Shown in pieces: positions 1,857 to 64,000 of a stretch of DNA of 64,000 bases (the stretch's first letter is position 1; each line of letters begins with the position of its first letter). The notes under the pieces are model-generated. The model did not search any database, was not told where the DNA came from, and saw only the letters and a program-made list of their open reading frames with translations. Both the position numbers and the translations under genes were made by a program. Origin of the DNA: Cyanidioschyzon merolae (lineage: Eukaryota); the NCBI GenBank assembly GCA_000091205.1, contig AP006499.2. One strand, written 5' to 3'.

Positions 1857-2849
1857 TTAGGATTCGGGTTCGATGAGGCCCACGCCCCCATGCCTCCGGC
1901 GATAGACGACATTGACTTCGCCGGTGTCGGCATTGCGGAAAACGTAAAAATCATGATCGATGTAATCCAAGCAAAGTACCGCTTCCTCGACTGTCTGCAG
2001 CGGCATAGGGAAGCGCTTCTTCCGCACGACTTCGCGGCTCGGCTCGATACCCATCTCTTCCAGTTCAGACTCTACCTCTCGGCGATGCTTGCTACCTTCG
2101 TAGGGCGCTCCGTCATCCACCGGAACAGGGCTCGTTGCCGGCACGGAAGCCAACCCGTCCATGGACTCCACAGGTGCGCTCGGAGAGGATGCTCGGGTCC
2201 GTCGGTCTTCCAAAAGCGCAACTTCGACCAGATCTGCAGTGGGACTGTGCTCATGCAATCGCTCCTTGTATTTTCGGAGCGTGCGCTTCAGTTTATCTGC
2301 TGTCAGATCTATCGCAGCATACATATTCTCCATTTTTACAGACGCACGAAGCACTCGCCCACGCGCATACGCCGTCACTTCGCAGTCGTGCGCGTTCTTG
2401 ATGCGCGGGTTATGCGCCACAGACAGGTGCACTTCGACTCGGGTCACCAGTCCTGGAAACTTTTCCACTACGTGCCCGATTTTGTCCAGAACATGTTCAC
2501 GGAGCGCCGAAGTCAAGTCAATATTATCGCCGGTGACCGTGATGGGTGTGGTTGTTGGCGCACTCATGCGCAAACACCTCGGCGAGGCGACTCGGACGCG
2601 ACTGTTGCCGAGTCTGGTTACCGGGCTTAGCGCAGGTACCTGCTGCACGCTGCTACCGTGGCGGCCACCTGACACACCACAACTACGCGTACGCAGTTTC
2701 AAGAACCATTGCGTTCTGTTGGAGAAGAGCACGCTGCTGATGAAAACCATGCTGTTTGGCGCTCTTTGGACACAAGGCCGAGTATTCGCGCGGCGTCTAC
2801 CGCGAGAGATACTTTCGCGACGGCAGATCATCGACGACGCCGGCCGCAA
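1857..2849 (-). CDS. hpf: Long-form ribosome hibernation promoting factor (bacterial HPF / plastid PSRP1-like) with an N-terminal extension of about 100 aa
   Basis: The N-domain 'ITVTGDNIDLTSALREHVLDKIGHVVEKF...MYAAIDLTADKLKRTLRKYKERL' matches the RaiA/HPF fold. The C-domain 'MPLQTVEEAVLCLDYIDHDFYVFRNADTGEVNVVYRRRHGGVGLIE' matches the long-HPF dimerisation domain. The N-terminal Ser/Arg-rich leader looks like a targeting peptide. The true start could instead be the internal Met at 'MSAPTTTPITV'. Confidence 0.85.
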   Translation of the reverse strand: MRPASSMICRRESISRGRRRANTRPCVQRAPNSMVFISSVLFSNRTQWFLKLRTRSCGVSGGRHGSSVQQVPALSPVTRLGNSRVRVASPRCLRMSAPTTTPITVTGDNIDLTSALREHVLDKIGHVVEKFPGLVTRVEVHLSVAHNPRIKNAHDCEVTAYARGRVLRASVKMENMYAAIDLTADKLKRTLRKYKERLHEHSPTADLVEVALLEDRRTRASSPSAPVESMDGLASVPATSPVPVDDGAPYEGSKHRREVESELEEMGIEPSREVVRKKRFPMPLQTVEEAVLCLDYIDHDFYVFRNADTGEVNVVYRRRHGGVGLIEPES

Positions 2850-54820: not shown

Positions 54821-56293
54821 TCAGGTGAAGAGCACCCAAACGCGCAGGCGCCCGTCGTCACCCGTGGAAGCGAGCAGGTAACTGCGCTGCAGCGTTTCCG
54901 TACTCATATCCTGGAAGCGCTTTCCCAGGTGAATGCTCCAGTCGCCGCAAGCATCGCGCCTTTTCTGAAACTGCACGTAATTGACCTCGGCACCGCTGTG
55001 TGCAGCTGGTATATCCAATAGAATGCGGAGCTCTGTCGCCTCGTACACCCGGATGTGCCCGTCAGCACAGGCAGTAGCTAAAAGTCTTCCATCATGGGAC
55101 CAGTCTACGCAGTACACTGATTCATCCTCTTCGTCGGCGAATCCAGCGTCGCCTGCGTTCACGCGGACTTGCTTAATGACCAACCATCGCTGTTTGCCGC
55201 TCATTACGGACGATACCAACGGAGGATCCAGGTTTCTAGGAGTCGAGCTGTCCACCTGCGTAGCTTCCGCGAACCTGGCATGCTCTTCTGGATCTTTCTC
55301 GATCGGTGCTGAGGCTAACGCGTCCCTAGTCGAGCTCAAGTCAAGTGACCAGGACCCTGATTCTCGACGCGCACTGGACGGTGCTTCCGCCATGACGCCT
55401 TCGTCTGTTGGTTGGGGCGTCCCTGCACCGACACCTTTCTCGCTGTGGGGTTGCGTTGGCGTCCGCACGGATACAGTGTCCTCAACAAGCGCATCATGGC
55501 GGATGGTTTCGGGCCTTGTACCGTCCTCGCATCGTTGCCACAGGAGCAGACGACCATCGGCACCAGCGCTCGCCAACAGGTGCTCGTAACCCGCATCGGC
55601 TGTTGGTGCAAATGCCACCGACCAAACCGTTGACTCGTGGCCCGAAAGTACCGCGCAGCAGTACCATTCACCATCGTAGACGTCCTCGCACCACAAACGA
55701 ATCGTGTTGTCATAGCTTGCCGAGGCGATCAGTTCAGTGCGCGGGTGCCAGACGAGGCTCTTCACGTCCTGTGTATGCCCGGCGAGCACCGCCACACACT
55801 CAAAGTCTAGGTCGCTGAAGGCACCAGGGCCGCACTCCCATATCCAAACCGTTTTATCGCGTGCACAAGTCGCTAGCAAAGTTCCAGAAGCGTTGAACAC
55901 CGCCGCCTTGACTTCGGACTCGTGGCCCTCGAGCGTGGCAACCAGTTCCAGCCGCAGGTACGCTGCCAGCACTGCGTTCGCGGGTTCGCGCTCCAAGCTC
56001 AGACCGTTCCCGCCTGACACACCCTCCACTAACCGATAAACTCGAACTTTACTGTCGAAACACGCCAGCGCTAGCTGCAAACCGCAGGGAGACCAGTCTA
56101 TGCGTCGAACCGAGCGGGCAAACGTGTCGCCCCCTAGACCACCCAACAGGAGACCCGTTCGAGCGTCCCAGATCCTCACGGCTTTGTCGGTGCCACATGT
56201 CGCGATGAGTTGGCCATTGGGGCTCCAGGTGGCACACCATAGCGTTTCGTGCTCCCTCTGAACATCAACTCGAAGCCACTCCCGCCACTGCAT
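54821..56293 (-). CDS. CIAO1: CIAO1 (cytosolic Fe-S assembly WD40 protein) with a ~150-aa low-complexity insertion
   Basis: '[65 protein letters not shown]' is nearly colinear with human CIAO1 '[63 protein letters not shown]'. The N-terminus '[21 protein letters not shown]' also matches. Confidence 0.85.
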   Translation of the reverse strand: [490 protein letters not shown]

Positions 56294-57371
56294 GGAAGCG
56301 AAGGCCGGAGTTGCGACTGCGGACGCCGCAATGCCGGCACTGGTGCTGACGCGTTCTACGCATAGCGGTTTCGTGTTACTCTCAAGCTGCGTTGAGAATG
56401 CAAAGAGGTTGTACTTTTGGGGCGTTCTTTGCGGGGATATGGTTGTTTCAGGTCATAATGAGGATGCAAAGCTTATAGACTTTGCAACTGGCGGCGTAGC
56501 AGGCTTTCTGGCGGACCTGGTCACGTACCCTTTTGATCGACTGCGCACCATCTTCATCGTTTCCTCTAGGCATACAAACAATTGGGATACTTTTATTCAA
56601 GCGGGCGGGTTTAGAACCCTCTACCAGGGTTTCTCAACTGTTGCACTGTTCACGCTTCCGGTTCATGGGGTTTACTTCGGGCTATACGAGTGGACGCTGC
56701 GCAGGTTTCGAGGAAGTGAGCAGCGTTCCGGCGCCGCCGACACGCTAGCCGTACCTGTCGCTGGACTCGTCGCCGAACTGGGCACCGCACCTATCTGGAA
56801 CGTGCAAGAGGTCATCAAGCAGCGCATTCAAGCCCAGTCGTTGCAGAGACTTGTGCCAGGAAACGGCACCTTTCAGTCGCCATGGCAGATGTTTCGCCAC
56901 ATTGTGCAGCAGGAAGGCCCGAGGGGTCTCTTTAGGGGCTTTTCCGCCGGCCTGCTTGTCTACGCTCCCTTTGCCTGCGTATATTTTTGGATTTTTGAGC
57001 ACGGACGAGAGCGTGGACGTGCGCCGCTCGTCAACGGAGTGTTATCGGGAACCTGTGCAACAATTGTTACACATCCGCTAGAGGTACTTCGTACGCATAT
57101 GGTTGTGAGCAAGTATCCGCGATCAGCGTGGTCGGTAGCTCTCGACATTCATCGCAGATATGGGATTCGCGGCTTCTTGAAGGGTCTGGGTGCGCGTACG
57201 CTCTGGCTGGCACCCTCGGCAGCGCTTAGCCTCGCATTTTACCAGCACCTGCAAGAAGTTTGGAAGGGTAACCCCCGTCCCATGCTTAGTCGTGCGATTT
57301 CTGAGCCAAAACTGCCCGGCTGTGAAAATGCTAGAATACGCCGGGGGCTCTCGTCGAATCGGAACGGCTGA
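56292..57371 (+). CDS. Mitochondrial carrier family (SLC25) protein
   Basis: There are three carrier repeats with P-x-[DE]-x-x-[KR] signatures: 'PFDRLRT', 'VQEVIKQRIQ' and 'PLEVLRTHM'. The ORF start overlaps the divergent CIAO1 start by 2 nt, so the real start is more likely the Met at about 56439 ('MVVSGHNEDAKLIDF'). Confidence 0.7.
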   Translation: MEAKAGVATADAAMPALVLTRSTHSGFVLLSSCVENAKRLYFWGVLCGDMVVSGHNEDAKLIDFATGGVAGFLADLVTYPFDRLRTIFIVSSRHTNNWDTFIQAGGFRTLYQGFSTVALFTLPVHGVYFGLYEWTLRRFRGSEQRSGAADTLAVPVAGLVAELGTAPIWNVQEVIKQRIQAQSLQRLVPGNGTFQSPWQMFRHIVQQEGPRGLFRGFSAGLLVYAPFACVYFWIFEHGRERGRAPLVNGVLSGTCATIVTHPLEVLRTHMVVSKYPRSAWSVALDIHRRYGIRGFLKGLGARTLWLAPSAALSLAFYQHLQEVWKGNPRPMLSRAISEPKLPGCENARIRRGLSSNRNG

Positions 57372-59061: not shown

Positions 59062-59655
59062 TTATGTTTCTGAATCTTCAGCTTGCTTGGTGGTGCTCCT
59101 TACTGGACTCGGGCTTGAGGTTCTTCCCGGGGCTTTAAGCAGCCTCTCACACGCTTGGTAGACTTCGCTAGGCACTTTGGTTCGTAAAGCGCCACCAAGT
59201 CGCTTTCGGTTGCGTACGTAGCTAAAGCATTCCAGTGAGTCCCGACAAATGTATGCGGATCGACCGTGAACTCGCCGTGAAGCCTCATTCTCTAAAGCTT
59301 CGGCAAAAACCCGGATGCCGGTGCCATCAGCTGCGCGGCAAACTCGGATAAACGCTGGCTTTGGGCGAGACCGGCGACACGCAACGCACACTCGTTGGTG
59401 CGGCTGTTTTCCACGCTTGCTTTCGGTATTGTTGACATCGCCTGGAGTTCCACTTTGTGCAAACACCGTAATAAAGGCTGATTGTGCCAGCATTGCAGCT
59501 ATGACTCTCACGCTCGTGGGCAAAGACAACCCCCGTCCACTGGGTGGTGCTTCTGGCACTGCGGCGAACCGGATGGGCGACGTCGGGCAACGTGTGCTCA
59601 ATTCCCCTGTCGGATTCAAATGGAACCCTGAACTGCGCACTCTGTTCTTTTTCAA
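59062..59655 (-). CDS. ylxR: YlxR/DUF448-like protein (bacterial nusA-infB operon RNA-binding protein family) with an N-terminal extension
   Basis: 'QRVCVACRRSRPKPAFIRVCRAADGTGIRVFAEALENEASRRVHGRSAYICRDSLECFSYVRNRKRLGGALRTKV' matches the DUF448 pattern 'RxCxxCRxxxxKxELIRxV...GRGAYxC...C...A.KxKxLxRAL'. A ~75-aa N-terminal leader precedes it. Confidence 0.65.
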   Translation of the reverse strand: MKKNRVRSSGFHLNPTGELSTRCPTSPIRFAAVPEAPPSGRGLSLPTSVRVIAAMLAQSAFITVFAQSGTPGDVNNTESKRGKQPHQRVCVACRRSRPKPAFIRVCRAADGTGIRVFAEALENEASRRVHGRSAYICRDSLECFSYVRNRKRLGGALRTKVPSEVYQACERLLKAPGRTSSPSPVRSTTKQAEDSET

Positions 59656-61420
59656 TTTTTTCTTCGGGACTCGTTTACTTATGCAGCAGCGACATTCGAA
59701 GTGCGACGAGAAGGGTTTACGGATTCATACCGAGTTTTAGGTTTCTTGATGGTCTATCCGGAACGGGTCTATCGACTGCCTGCCGCTGAATTTCGTCAAG
59801 TCGCCGTAATCAAGATGATTCGCGAAGTTGTAAAACAAGAGCTCGTAAAATAATTTGTATGAATATTCAATAGACATGTACACAACTCCAATCTTCTCAG
59901 TTCCTTATGTGATGCATGCTCAAATCATGCGTGCTTCTAATTTTCGTTGTTTCTGTTCCAAAGCAACTCGTGTGCGAGGCGGTGCGCGCCGCAGGATTTG
60001 CAAGGAAACAAACTCGACTGCGTCCTGTGACAGCTTTGCACAAGCTCTTTCTGATTTTTCATCGAACATCTCAGACCGGTTAGTCGATTCCATTTGAAAG
60101 ACCAATCCTCCTCGCCTGTTGGAAAGCGATGAAACTGGATTCGGCAGCAGCATGATACCGGTCCCGCGGTACGCTCCCGGAGGCTCCCGCCTTCAGTTTC
60201 AATGGAAAGGGGTTAAGTGCTCGGACTTCAAACATCACGTGGATCGCTTTGGATAAAGGCAGCGTCACAGTTTCCCACGAGGGGTGCCTGGAAGGATCCA
60301 AGTCTCTCGACTTGGTCTCCAGCCTAAGTTTTCATTCCCTTACTCGTACAGTCATGGAAAATATCGTCTTCGAAACAACATACGCTATCGAATGAGACAG
60401 CGAGCGCTTAAGCGAGCAGCGGGCATCGTCATCTACGAGTCGCCGCCCAGAAGAATCCTAAAATCGCAGGGTACGGAATCCCGCACGGAAACGGAGGAGG
60501 GCATGGTGCGTAGGCTTCCGCAGCCCCCAGTGGCATGCACCGAGCGAGAATGCTTGCTCACGCTGCCATCAACACCCTTCGATAGCTGACAATAGAGCAG
60601 GAGCGAAAGGAGAGACCCACGAAATTAACGCTGTACATGAGAGGGAGGAATAGGAAGCATTTACAGAAAGCGCTCGCAAAGACTGGCGTTGATGACACTC
60701 GATGGAAACGAAAATATTTGCGTCCACGCCCGTGATTGAGGACCTTTCCATTTCACGCTGATATCGGTGTACCAACACTGCGGCTGGGGGCCGGGTCCGT
60801 ACTCGCAGCTGCACGTCGGCGCCGCATCGAGGCATCCACATAAGAGAATTCCCTTAACGGAAAAAGGGAAATTCACCGCAATGCGCGCGCCTCTGGAGCG
60901 TTTCGTACCAGTGGCTGTTCAAGCTGCTGTTAGTGGTCAGGCCGGTATAGGGGCGTCGCTATGCCTTAAACCGACGTGGAAGCTGCGCGGATGGTCGACC
61001 CTATAAGACGTTGTCATTTGCAGCTCACAGTATCTTTATTTTATGTGACTGCAGGGGCTAGAGTGGGTGTCCTGCGCCAGCTCCGAGGAGCTGCTTGGTC
61101 TTCGTGGCGGCACTCGAGGACACACGGGCGAGCGGAGCAAACAATCCACGCTAAGCGCCCAGCACCGTCTACTCGAGTGTTGCGGGTGCGCCAGAAAGAC
61201 AAACGTTCGGTGTCACGAAGCGCAAGATGGCTCATCGCTAACGCGTCCGCGGAAGCTGGTTTCTGCGCAGCGCTCTGGGTGGCGTACCGTCAACTGCAGC
61301 GCAGCCGCAAACATGCGCAGTTGACGGCGGCCCGATGGCTATGGAAACGTCGCCTACGTCTTGTACCTGCTGCGTTTCCGACGTTGAATAGGCCTGGTCG
61401 TCCGGAAAGCAACCCTACAC

Positions 61421-61440
61421 TAACAGGACATGAAGAAGAA
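61421..61440. repeat. (GAA)6 microsatellite
   Basis: 'gaagaagaagaagaagaag', in the open frame upstream of the ABC1K first Met. Confidence 0.7.
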
Positions 61441-61629
61441 GAAGAAGCTTGCCAGTTGGATTCAGTCCCTGACAACTCACACCGACCGCGTTCCGGTGAT
61501 GCAAGGGTACAGCATGGCTCTCTCTTCCAAACCGCAAAAGAATATGTCACTTTGGCGTTCTTGCTCGCCATTGTCAGCCCCCCTTCTGTAGAGGCAATTG
61601 GGCTTGTGCCAGCCAACGCACCTGATTGC

Positions 61630-64000
61630 ATGCCAATGGTACCAATTGCATTTGCGGAAGGCGGTGAGTTGACCCATCGGTCGATATACCCAGATACAGT
61701 GCTTGAGTTGAATCCACCGTGGCAACAGCAGCGATACAGGCGCTGGTATGAGACCGATAGGGTCTTGCTTGAGGAGGCGCGGCGAATGCATGATCGCGAT
61801 GCAGCTGAAGCGGAGGCCATTCAGGCAATGCTCGAGCATGACGTCTGGATACCGAACGAATCGAACGCATATTCAGAGGATTCCAACACGTATTCAGGCT
61901 CTGGCGGGCAGTCACCTGCCCTAGTTGCTGCGCATATTGCCAAAGATGAAAATTCTGCACAACCCGAAAGCCGCGATGTATTCTATTGGCGTCGTCTGGG
62001 TGTCGGCGCTTTTGTGGGCACTTTTCTATGGTGGAGTCACATTATGAATGTTCGGAACTCGAACCGGGTGCGTTTGCCCAGCACCTACGACCCAGGCGCT
62101 ATCGCACAGTACTTCGCACTGAGACCTGAGCAGGTCGCCCTGCGAACAGTCTCTATTATTTCCGAAGCGATATGGTATATTGCTGGTATTCAAAGAGATC
62201 AGTTGGAGTATCGGATCTTCGGCATGAAGCAACACCCAGGCGGCGAGTCGGGGCAGCGCGCGGCCGGCGCTGACGCCCCAGAGACAATAGCGACACCATC
62301 GCTGGCAAATGCGACGCTTTCTCCTGGTGAGCCTGGTATGGCATCCTGGACGAAGGCGTTTCGTCGGCGGCTTGTGCAGATTCCAGAAACACTCATCTCC
62401 TCGCTGCGAAAGGATGAGACGTTTTGGGTTTGGCGTCGCCAGCGGCGAGCCGTGCTACTGCGGCAAACACTCGAACGTCTAGGTCCGGCGTTTGTGAAGC
62501 TGGGCCAAGCGCTCGCGACTCGCCCGGATATTGTCGGTGAAGCAGCTGCCCGCGAACTGCAGCGCCTACAAGATGATCTACCTCACTTTCCGAACGAGGA
62601 GGCGTTCCGCTTCATCCGGGCTGAATTGGGAGCTCCTCCAAACCGGGTCTTTGACTGGATCAGTGATAGCCCAGTAGCGTCGGCAAGCTTGGGTCAAGTG
62701 TACAAAGCACGACTCGATGGAGTCGAACTTGCCGTGAAAGTACAGCGACCGGGCATCGTAGAACGAATCGCCCTGGATATCCACGTCGTCCGTCTGCTGG
62801 GGCAATTATACATGCGCAGTCCCTGGGCGCCGCGTACGAATCTTGTTGAAGCAATAGATGAGTATGCCAGTAGGCTCTTTGAGGAGCTGGACTACGATCA
62901 CGAAGCGAAGAACATGCATCGCTTCCGTCAACTATATGGCTCTTTGCCCGGTATTTACGTGCCGGAGGTTTATCCAGAGTACTCCTCGGCGCATGTGCTC
63001 ACCATGGAGTGGGTCAATGGTCGACGCCTGATCGACGACACGGCAACGGTGCGTCGAGAGGATATTCCGCTAATCAAGCTAGGCATTCTCTGCTCGTTGA
63101 TGCAGCTGATGGAGGCTGGCTTTCTGCACGCTGACCCACACACAGGGAACTTGCTCGTTACCGAGGATGGAACGCGCTTGGCTTACCTTGACTATGGCCT
63201 CATGAGTGAAGTACCGCAATCGGTGCAGCTCTCGATAATTTGTGCGGTTGTACACCTTATTAATCGCGAGTACGAACAATTAGCAACGGACTTTTTCGGT
63301 CTGACACTCATGCGTCGAGACGATCTAGACACGGTGCTTCCAGAATTTGCAGATGCTCTTCGTGAAACCTTTGAAAGCGAGGCGAACGCGACGAATCCCG
63401 GTGATTTCACGCTGCAAGGCGTTGCCGAAAAGCTTCTGCGAATGACTGTTCGCTTTCCGTTTGTGATGCCACCTTACTTTTTGAATAACTTGCGCGCCTT
63501 GGCCATCCTCGAGGGTTTGGCGCTCAACGCTGACCCCTGCTTCCGCATTATGGACATTATCTATCCGTACGTGGTTCGCCGCCTCCTGACGGACTCGTCA
63601 CCGCAACTGCAGCGAGCACTGCATGAGCTCGTTTTGACGCCCTTTGGCGAGCCTCGCTGGGATCGCGTCGAGAAGCTCCTCGAGGATGCCGCACGAACTG
63701 TGCCAAACATGGGACTTGTGTCACTGGACCCGCGTCCGGTTGCCGTGCTCGAGTTGGCAGCTCGAGAGGCTGCGGAAGCAGCCCGCTCGCGACTGAACGG
63801 TACTGTAGAAGGCCAAATGCGTGCAACCACCAGCGCATACTTTCGACTGTCGTCACCAGAGTTGGTACTCGGAAGCGGCGCGCCTCGCTCGAGTTCTCCG
63901 GGCGAGTGGTCTGACGAACAGCGTACACCCGATGCATCGCTCGAGTGTCCGAATACGGCCGTCGTCCTCGATGATGAACGCCGCATGCAGCTTCTTGTGT
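61630..64000 (+). CDS. ABC1/ADCK (UbiB-family) atypical kinase, 3'-partial (runs off the window)
   Basis: In-frame 'GPAFVKLGQALATRPDIVGEAAARELQRLQDDLPHFP', 'VASASLGQVYKARLDGVELAVKVQRPGI' and 'FLHADPHTGNLLVTEDG' are the ABC1 domain signatures. A predicted TM 'GVGAFVGTFLWWSHI' lies upstream. The first in-frame Met is at 61630, and the frame is open from 60970. Confidence 0.8.
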   Translation, partial: MPMVPIAFAEGGELTHRSIYPDTVLELNPPWQQQRYRRWYETDRVLLEEARRMHDRDAAEAEAIQAMLEHDVWIPNESNAYSEDSNTYSGSGGQSPALVAAHIAKDENSAQPESRDVFYWRRLGVGAFVGTFLWWSHIMNVRNSNRVRLPSTYDPGAIAQYFALRPEQVALRTVSIISEAIWYIAGIQRDQLEYRIFGMKQHPGGESGQRAAGADAPETIATPSLANATLSPGEPGMASWTKAFRRRLVQIPETLISSLRKDETFWVWRRQRRAVLLRQTLERLGPAFVKLGQALATRPDIVGEAAARELQRLQDDLPHFPNEEAFRFIRAELGAPPNRVFDWISDSPVASASLGQVYKARLDGVELAVKVQRPGIVERIALDIHVVRLLGQLYMRSPWAPRTNLVEAIDEYASRLFEELDYDHEAKNMHRFRQLYGSLPGIYVPEVYPEYSSAHVLTMEWVNGRRLIDDTATVRREDIPLIKLGILCSLMQLMEAGFLHADPHTGNLLVTEDGTRLAYLDYGLMSEVPQSVQLSIICAVVHLINREYEQLATDFFGLTLMRRDDLDTVLPEFADALRETFESEANATNPGDFTLQGVAEKLLRMTVRFPFVMPPYFLNNLRALAILEGLALNADPCFRIMDIIYPYVVRRLLTDSSPQLQRALHELVLTPFGEPRWDRVEKLLEDAARTVPNMGLVSLDPRPVAVLELAAREAAEAARSRLNGTVEGQMRATTSAYFRLSSPELVLGSGAPRSSSPGEWSDEQRTPDASLECPNTAVVLDDERRMQLLV

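Follow-up and report, generated by a model that had tools for sequence, protein, structure and literature searches.

A nuclear YlxR-family gene in Cyanidioschyzon merolae, possibly linked to plastid RNase P RNA

The DNA analysed here, called the window below, is a stretch of 64,000 nucleotides from the red alga Cyanidioschyzon merolae (contig AP006499.2 of assembly GCA_000091205.1). On its minus strand, at 59493..59062, lies CMQ259C, a single-exon gene for a protein of 143 amino acids (aa) that belongs to the bacterial YlxR/DUF448 family. CMQ259C is a real nuclear gene, catalogued under an automatic name and unstudied. What is new here is a eukaryotic, nuclear member of a known bacterial family.

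Our tentative reading, held with slightly less than even confidence, is that the product is an RNA binder of cyanobacterial origin, which would be imported into the plastid and act on the plastid RNase P RNA.

The YlxR domain

The domain was noticed in an earlier, sequence-only reading of this DNA, within a 197-codon open reading frame (ORF) at 59062..59655 on the minus strand. The motifs quoted there, CVACRRSRPKPAFIRVCR ... GRSAYICRDSLECF ... NRKRLGGAL, are found exactly in that frame, and the YlxR/DUF448 gene is real. Pfam PF04296 matches residues 88-170 of the ORF over profile positions 1-74 of 75, with an E-value of 2.8e-15 and a score of 56.4 bits, where the gathering cut-off is 26.9 bits. 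The 143-aa protein by itself scores 55.0 bits, and its orthologues 58.4 and 67.0 bits. This is far beyond chance.

In the protein the domain covers residues 34-116 (59146..59394, minus strand), as found by Pfam, AlphaFold2 and Foldseek. The AlphaFold2 model has block values of the predicted local distance difference test (pLDDT) of 85-97 for residues ~31-120, with 48-63 for the N-terminus and 51-62 for the C-terminal tail. The top Foldseek match of this model is 1g2r, the YlxR protein of Streptococcus pneumoniae, with a probability of 1.00, a target TM (template modelling) score of 0.75 and a root-mean-square deviation of 2.3 Å over 92 columns. It is also the only significant structural match; all others have E-values of at least 0.8. 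Identity in this structural alignment is 14%, and 1G2R does without the cysteine pairs, the terminal extensions and the hairpin insertion of CMQ259C. A phmmer search of PDB sequences with the single ORF found no match. The family profile matches the 1g2r chain sequence with an E-value of 1.1e-19.

Conservation was read from three alignments, of 20 (A1), 84 (A3) and 17 (A4) sequences. Invariant in all three are R34, C36, C39, R50, G77, R78, Y81 and C89. C83 is invariant in A1 and A4, and nearly so (at least 90%) in A3.

Several of these residues have known counterparts. The invariant pattern R34-x-C36-x-x-C39 (59377..59394, minus strand) corresponds to R6 and the first cysteine pair of Ssr1238 from Synechocystis (PMC11622646). 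R50 (59344..59346, minus strand), the second conserved arginine of a putative RNA-binding cleft, is equivalent to R22 of Ssr1238 and to R19 of S. pneumoniae YlxR. The conserved cleft motif of the family, GRGA(W/Y) or GRSAY, has the form GRSAY here (residues 77-81). It is followed by the second cysteine pair, C83 and C89, and this block lies at 59227..59265 on the minus strand (alignments A1, A3 and A4).

The variant of the motif with a serine, GRSAY, is carried by 12 of the 14 sequences in the cyanobacterial cluster, and by 2 of the 180 in the main bacterial cluster. With C36, C39, C83 and C89 (CxxC plus C-x5-C) and GRSAY, CMQ259C has the features of the cyanobacterial four-cysteine subtype. 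The Bacillus/Streptococcus type, in contrast, lacks these four cysteines. The core of the CMQ259C protein is strongly basic, with a net charge of +12 and an isoelectric point of 10.4.

Residues 41-111 (~59161..59373, minus strand) also give a sub-threshold match to the FBP C-terminal treble-clef zinc finger, at 22-23 bits where 27.2 are needed. This is a hint that the four cysteines could bind zinc, and not the iron-sulfur (Fe-S) cluster that has been proposed for the Synechocystis protein.

An eight-residue insertion in a beta-hairpin, IRVFAEAL (59293..59316, minus strand), sets the algal proteins apart. Residues are present here in all four Cyanidiaceae sequences, and all bacterial ones have a gap; cyanobacterial proteins have a shortened loop at this place. 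The insertion is modelled as a strand, with block pLDDT values of 85-95. At the other end of the protein, residues 122-143 (59065..59130, minus strand) form a tail rich in serine, proline and threonine, which is predicted to be disordered (pLDDT 51-62) and is not alignable between genera.

One phmmer match was set aside. The 1145-aa protein P0052, which has tandem repeats (GAPGRSLARMPVNLNPKQ...), scores 115 bits in 14 stretches, all of them against the Ser/Pro tail only. This is a matter of composition, and not of YlxR homology.

The domain has been kept while the N- and C-terminal tails diverge, and the family-invariant residues are intact in four sequences that are 37-52% identical overall. 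A conserved domain with free tails is what one would expect if purifying selection maintains a functional protein.

Gene model

Four proteins of the window have exact deposited matches from C. merolae 10D, namely BAM82129 and BAM82143-45, which stem from a 1.23-Mb record. The CMQ locus tags place them on chromosome 17 of that strain. CMQ259C itself is identical to BAM82145.1, XP_005538181.1 and UniProt M1V6F3. GenBank and RefSeq call it 'hypothetical protein', and UniProt 'YlxR domain-containing protein'.

The 197-codon frame starts with TTG, which is a start only by the convention of the bacterial code, and 54 codons without any ATG go by before the first ATG. In Cyanidiococcus and a Cyanidium-like assembly, the orthologues begin at the ATG that aligns with this one, and an in-frame stop precedes it by 22 codons in the former and by 14 in the latter. 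Because of the TTG start, the missing upstream ATG and these aligned starts, the coding sequence is 59493..59062 on the minus strand. It comprises 143 codons plus a stop in a single exon, with the ATG at 59493..59491, and the translation has been verified. The 197-aa ORF owes its length to the bacterial-code rule for calling ORFs, and is an artefact. The in-frame open stretch before the ATG (59494..59655, minus strand), which has no ATG and is matched by upstream stops in the orthologues, is most likely 5' untranslated region (UTR) rather than coding.

This also does away with the N-terminal leader of about 75 aa that the sequence-only reading had described, which came from the TTG frame. The true extension before R34 is 33 aa long.

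Two Logan contigs of 1102 nucleotides are collinear with the window from 59743 to 58642. They show no gap, and there is therefore no sign of an intron in CMQ259C. As they may stem from DNA as well as from RNA, the contigs do not count as evidence of transcription.

Both contigs are from other samples (L002 and L003). They share a coding-strand G to T change at 59331, in codon 55, which turns Ala55 into Ser (CRAADGT to CRASDGT). The L003 contig has two more differences, both non-coding, at 59672 and 58887. These three differences are natural variation among C. merolae-like strains.

The DNA ahead of the gene has some further peculiarities. The ATG-free in-frame open stretch upstream of CMQ259C comes to 77 codons, which is unusually long. 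If the transcript begins as far up as 59743, the point to which the public contigs extend, its 5' leader (59494..59743, minus strand) would hold two short upstream ORFs before the ATG of CMQ259C, ATGAATCCGTAA and ATGTCGCTGCTGCATAAGTAA.

Relatives and expression

An exhaustive phmmer search against 1.84 billion cluster representatives (E<=1e-3) gave 226 matches. Three clusters alone are close. One is C. merolae itself, another is Cyanidiococcus yangmingshanensis (131 aa, at 54-56% identity), and the third is a 159-aa protein of a metagenome assembly. The next matches, at 62 bits, are ordinary bacterial YlxR proteins of 85-110 aa. A profile of the three close sequences adds CDCA10G2987 (159 aa) of Cyanidium caldarium, after which scores fall from 213 to 64 bits.

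The position of the gene is conserved too. The order shared by the genomes examined is MFS (major facilitator superfamily), DEAD_2 helicase, ABC1 kinase, YlxR, mitochondrial carrier, WD40, epimerase and CPSase. Cyanidiococcus and the Cyanidium-like assembly have this order, and C. merolae has it too within the limits of the window. YlxR is at the same locus in Cyanidioschyzon, Cyanidiococcus and Cyanidium, and was therefore already there in their common ancestor.

Beyond these three genera, the phmmer and profile searches saw no relative in Galdieria or in any other eukaryote, though divergent homologues could escape such searches. Among the rows listed in the orthogroup table of PMC13353863, four-species groups run directly from CMQ258C to CMQ260C. 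CMQ259C is skipped, and by those rows it thus lacks a one-to-one counterpart in Galdieria partita. For the Synechocystis YlxR protein, PMC8136920 gives no orthologue in Arabidopsis. Judging by sequence searches, the gene seems not to be a general eukaryotic feature, as it is seen in Cyanidioschyzon, Cyanidiococcus and Cyanidium only.

Both the restriction to three related cyanidiophycean genera and the absence of a four-species orthogroup with G. partita among the listed rows would suit a different history. A bacterium outside the cyanobacteria might have passed the gene horizontally to the ancestor of Cyanidium, Cyanidiococcus and Cyanidioschyzon, once the Galdieria line had branched off. The gene product may then work elsewhere than in the plastid, be it the cytosol, the nucleus or the mitochondrion, and on a different RNA. 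We regard this as unlikely, and the evidence on origin given below bears on it.

It is very improbable that CMQ259C has no expressed product and is just a dead relic or an error of annotation. It is true that GenBank calls it a 'hypothetical protein', that it goes unmentioned in the main texts consulted, and that the supplementary tables of the C. merolae transcriptome papers searched hold no entry for CMQ259C itself. Against this stand the intact domain with all its family-invariant residues in four diverged sequences, the conserved synteny and the confidently modelled AlphaFold core. There is also expression of the Cyanidiococcus orthologue, CcyanHa1_g1010 (BHE84898.1), for which the entry in Supplementary Data Set 7 of PMC13353863 lists CMQ259C as the best C. 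merolae match. In the same source, this entry gives 80-102 transcripts per million across six RNA-seq samples, and mass-spectrometric intensities for the diploid phase as well as the haploid one. The sequence-only reading had named absence of expression as a reason to drop the gene; going by that entry, the orthologue is detected as RNA and as protein.

No literature on a eukaryotic YlxR was found.

Origin of the gene

A cyanobacterial, and thus endosymbiotic, origin is the best point estimate from the sequence comparisons. It is favoured but not established.

A neighbour-joining tree was made from 25 named cyanobacterial sequences, the 85 best-scoring matches from other bacteria and the four algal sequences, over 84 aligned columns. 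With the full data it splits cleanly, with the four Cyanidiaceae sequences sister to all 25 named cyanobacteria. The bootstrap for this position is only 35%, and 20% in a larger, noisier set; the monophyly of the algal group itself gets 58%. The cyanobacterial affinity which the sequence-only reading expected is thus what the tree prefers, with a bootstrap that leaves it short of firm. A clean split of this kind does argue against horizontal transfer from elsewhere, just as the weak bootstrap argues for it.

The two halves of the protein tell different stories. In the C-terminal half, identity to cyanobacteria is 40-50%, whereas the best other bacteria reach 33-36%. In its N-terminal half the protein is slightly nearer to other bacteria than to cyanobacteria, and this fits the transfer explanation. 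So does the fact that the top-scoring bacterial matches are non-cyanobacterial. The best single one sits in a ylxR-L7Ae-infB operon of the Firmicutes type, and scores with sub-family hidden Markov models are mixed.

It should be kept in mind how these bacteria were chosen. Those labelled 'other' entered the comparison as the top matches to the query among the 1.84 billion representatives. Because of this selection for similarity to the query, the tree test is biased against cyanobacteria, which takes some force from the case for transfer.

Also on the cyanobacterial side is what Cyanidiaceae and cyanobacteria have in common, namely the serine of GRSAY and the block KKNR[LV]GR.L+..V..E[IV]Y. 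In cyanobacterial YlxR, the best if weakly supported neighbour in the tree, this C-terminal helix block reads KKNRLGRxLK..VP.EIY. The likeness to Synechocystis sp. PCC 6803 Ssr1238/Slr0743a (PMC11622646) extends to the Pfam domain, the arginine pair, GRSAY with its serine and the two cysteine pairs; both proteins are small and basic. The differences from cyanobacterial YlxR are that CMQ259C is nuclear and outside the rimP-nusA-ylxR-infB operon, that it has its 33-aa N-terminal extension, its disordered Ser/Pro-rich tail and the 8-residue hairpin insertion, and that identity is 29-40%.

A profile search with at least 120 matches, in which all those listed are cyanobacteria, shows the 'MGRSAY' cluster to be cyanobacterial. 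Some matches in that search appeared to have long N-termini. These were set aside as cyanobacterial genes with over-called starts, having an internal MKPNYR or MEPNYR. The three-sequence profile run against bacterial genomes found only three Clostridia with 'HGRSAY.C', which is uninformative on origin.

As to how common such transfers are, Cyanidiophyceae are known for about 1% horizontally acquired genes (PMC6629376), which is in favour of a transfer. The main text of that survey is silent on this gene. The cell's only bacterial-type RNase P RNA, furthermore, is encoded by the plastid, which again speaks for a plastid protein.

N-terminal extension

The extension, residues 1-33 (MLAQSAFITVFAQSGTPGDVNNTESKRGKQPHQ; 59395..59493, minus strand), is a candidate short plastid transit peptide with phenylalanines at positions 7 and 11. 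At this place, some 5-12 residues are usual in bacterial homologues, so that the excess is about 20-25 aa. The sequence is not conserved among the three genera, and has a mean pLDDT of 48-63.

An N-terminal phenylalanine is characteristic of the transit peptides of rhodophytes and glaucophytes (PMC2222254, PMC9407449). C. merolae has 'SAFITVF', which contains F7 and F11, and Cyanidiococcus has 'GFVP'. For the Cyanidiococcus orthologue, its entry in Supplementary Data Set 7 of PMC13353863 gives a negative SignalP result and no transmembrane segment. The resemblance of the phenylalanine motif to red-algal transit peptides is suggestive, and makes plastid import of CMQ259C plausible. The shortness of the extension can also be counted in favour of horizontal transfer.

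RNA binding and plastid RNase P

The sequence-only reading had called CMQ259C a translation-apparatus accessory protein. This is out of date, and rests on the context of the bacterial operon alone. YlxR of Bacillus subtilis has been renamed RnpM; it binds RNase P RNA, and it lowers RNase P activity in vitro (PMC10853771). RnpM has the same fold as CMQ259C; it is the functionally defined member of the family and the source of the mechanistic model used here. In Synechocystis, RNase P RNA is the top target of YlxR in cross-linking and immunoprecipitation. Recombinant Synechocystis YlxR co-purified RnpB RNA, and RNA binding was lost when serine replaced the four cysteines. The same paper describes R6, R22 and GRSAY as the likely RNA-binding cleft, and proposes that the four cysteines could hold an Fe-S cluster (all from PMC11622646). 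CMQ259C carries every listed feature of this cyanobacterial type, namely R34, R50, GRSAY and the two cysteine pairs.

A bacterial-type RNase P RNA is also at hand. Every sequenced red-algal plastid genome encodes rnpB, and the RNase P RNA of the C. merolae plastid is inactive alone in vitro (PMC4264200). No RnpA homologue is known from red algae, and the role of their plastid RNase P RNAs is unexplained (PMC4264200). The plastid rnpB of C. merolae shows steady expression (PMC3372377). Our best guess, by analogy with the bacteria, is that a YlxR of the cyanobacterial type in this cell would most obviously have this RNA as its cognate ligand.

A related case is the chromatophore of Paulinella, a photosynthetic organelle of cyanobacterial origin, which has kept YlxR along with a functional rnpB (cited in PMC11622646). 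There, ylxR is still in the organelle genome. CMQ259C, in contrast, is nuclear, and its product would have to be imported.

Put together, the tentative reading runs as follows. The gene would probably descend from the cyanobacterial ancestor of the plastid. It would have left the rimP-nusA-ylxR-infB operon, and gained a short N-terminal extension with phenylalanine, by which the protein may be imported into the plastid. There, an electropositive cleft formed by R34, R50 and GRSAY would bind structured RNA, with a metal centre of C36, C39, C83 and C89 holding the cleft in shape. The most likely target would be the plastid-encoded rnpB RNA, and binding may tune or stabilise the enzyme that trims the 5' ends of plastid pre-tRNAs. 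What we infer here is the plastid location, this target and in which direction RNase P would be affected.

CMQ259C does not have the operon location of its bacterial relatives. Its neighbours are the genes for a mitochondrial carrier and an ABC1 kinase. Losing this context is to be expected for a transferred gene, and operon location is a contextual trait of the family, not one that defines its sequence.

Apart from the bootstrap values, the mixed sub-family scores and the Firmicutes-type best match given above, the following weighs against the reading of CMQ259C as a plastid binder of RNase P RNA. The extensions of the Cyanidiaceae proteins are short (23-34 aa), are not rich in serine or threonine and do contain acidic residues; that of Cyanidium has a tryptophan in place of the phenylalanine. 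The RnpM residues that were mutated to break RNA binding (K11, V13, T15 and D53) are reported not to be conserved in the cyanobacterial type (PMC11622646). The score against the RnpM equivalog of NCBIfam, NF047356, is 44.2 bits, below the cut-off of 80, and the protein is therefore not to be named RnpM by equivalence; that it would behave like RnpM is argued from the cyanobacterial data. All red algae keep rnpB and the protein is seen in three genera only, because of which a universal role as cofactor of plastid RNase P RNA is out of the question. Finally, Synechocystis YlxR also binds another RNA, and its co-immunoprecipitation enriched ribosomal proteins and RNA-modification enzymes (PMC11622646). 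Because of this, RNase P RNA need not be the sole or main target in the alga either.

This last point leads to a further possibility, which we hold to be rather improbable. CMQ259C might be a plastid protein whose main job lies in the ribosome or in the coupling of translation to transcription, and not in RNase P, much as the sequence-only reading had it. The ribosomal proteins and RNA-modification enzymes pulled down in Synechocystis would fit. Red-algal plastids have kept a bacterial-type translation apparatus, and a plastid-type HPF is encoded in the same window. In bacteria, the gene sits in a rimP-nusA-ylxR-(L7Ae)-infB operon. Such an operon, however, is guilt by association, and it has been lost here. 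Sharing a 64-kb window with HPF, 57 kb away, carries no functional weight in a eukaryotic nucleus. And in both organisms that have been studied directly, the specific RNA partner is RNase P RNA.

There is also a bolder form of the link to RNase P. Once a bacterial RnpA had been lost in Cyanidiaceae, CMQ259C could have become the partner protein that has been missing for plastid RNase P RNA. As such, it would be imported and be needed for the stability or activity of an RNA that is otherwise catalytically dead, with the four cysteines possibly sensing redox state or metal. We consider this a long shot.

Neighbouring genes

The sequence-only reading noted that the gene stands among eukaryotic ones, and it does. 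Encoded nearby are a mitochondrial carrier, a CIAO1-like WD40 protein, NSF and an ABC1 kinase, and the gene is removed from any nusA-infB operon.

CMQ258C (56292..57371, plus strand) encodes the mitochondrial-carrier protein, an exact match to BAM82144.1, and adjoins YlxR in Cyanidiococcus and the Cyanidium-like assembly as well. It lies head-to-head with CMQ257C, the WD40/CIAO1-like gene (54821..56293, minus strand). The start codons of the two overlap (56291..56294), which leaves no room for a promoter or UTR. Orthologues of the carrier are 55-78 aa shorter, at 304 aa in Cyanidiococcus and 281 aa in the Cyanidium-like assembly. Because of the missing promoter and UTR space and these shorter orthologues, the start of CMQ258C is probably annotated too far upstream.

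On the other side is CMQ260C, an ABC1/aarF kinase gene (60991..64000, plus strand), which is open to the end of the window and scores 220 bits against Pfam ABC1. It has the same arrangement in Cyanidiococcus and the Cyanidium-like assembly. CMQ259C and CMQ260C are divergent, and their start codons are ~1.5 kb apart, which is long for a compact genome. The DNA in between (59656..60990) has only short ORFs of at most 101 aa.

Near the start of the window is a long-form gene of the HPF/PSRP1 type (1857..2849, minus strand). The sequence-only reading had pointed it out, and its presence is borne out by matches to Ribosomal_S30AE and to its C-terminal domain, at ~84 bits each. The product is probably a plastid ribosome factor. 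The ORF starts with TTG and has ~100 residues upstream of the domain. Candidate in-frame methionine starts are found at ORF residue 7 ('MICRRES') and residue 34 ('MVFISSVLF'), which would leave ~96 or 69 residues. If the internal 'MVFISSVLF' is a true start, it would fit the phenylalanine motif of red-algal transit peptides.

Significance

The RNase P of red-algal, glaucophyte and prasinophyte plastids has been a puzzle since the 1990s. None of the universally conserved nucleotides is missing from the plastid rnpB. Even so, the RNA shows no activity by itself, and red algae have yielded no protein subunit of the bacterial type (PMC4264200).

The value of CMQ259C for this problem is limited. 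With its apparent range of three genera it cannot explain plastid rnpB in general, and the protein was already in the databases under an automatic name. To our knowledge, however, YlxR/RnpM has since late 2023 been the one further protein family with demonstrated specific binding to bacterial RNase P RNA.

A nuclear YlxR of the cyanobacterial type, with an expressed orthologue, would thus be a concrete and testable candidate partner for plastid RNase P RNA. In C. merolae, genes can be altered by homologous recombination, and each cell has a single plastid. If CMQ259C did turn out to be the missing partner, a bacterial inhibitor of RNase P would have turned into a subunit of an organellar RNase P.

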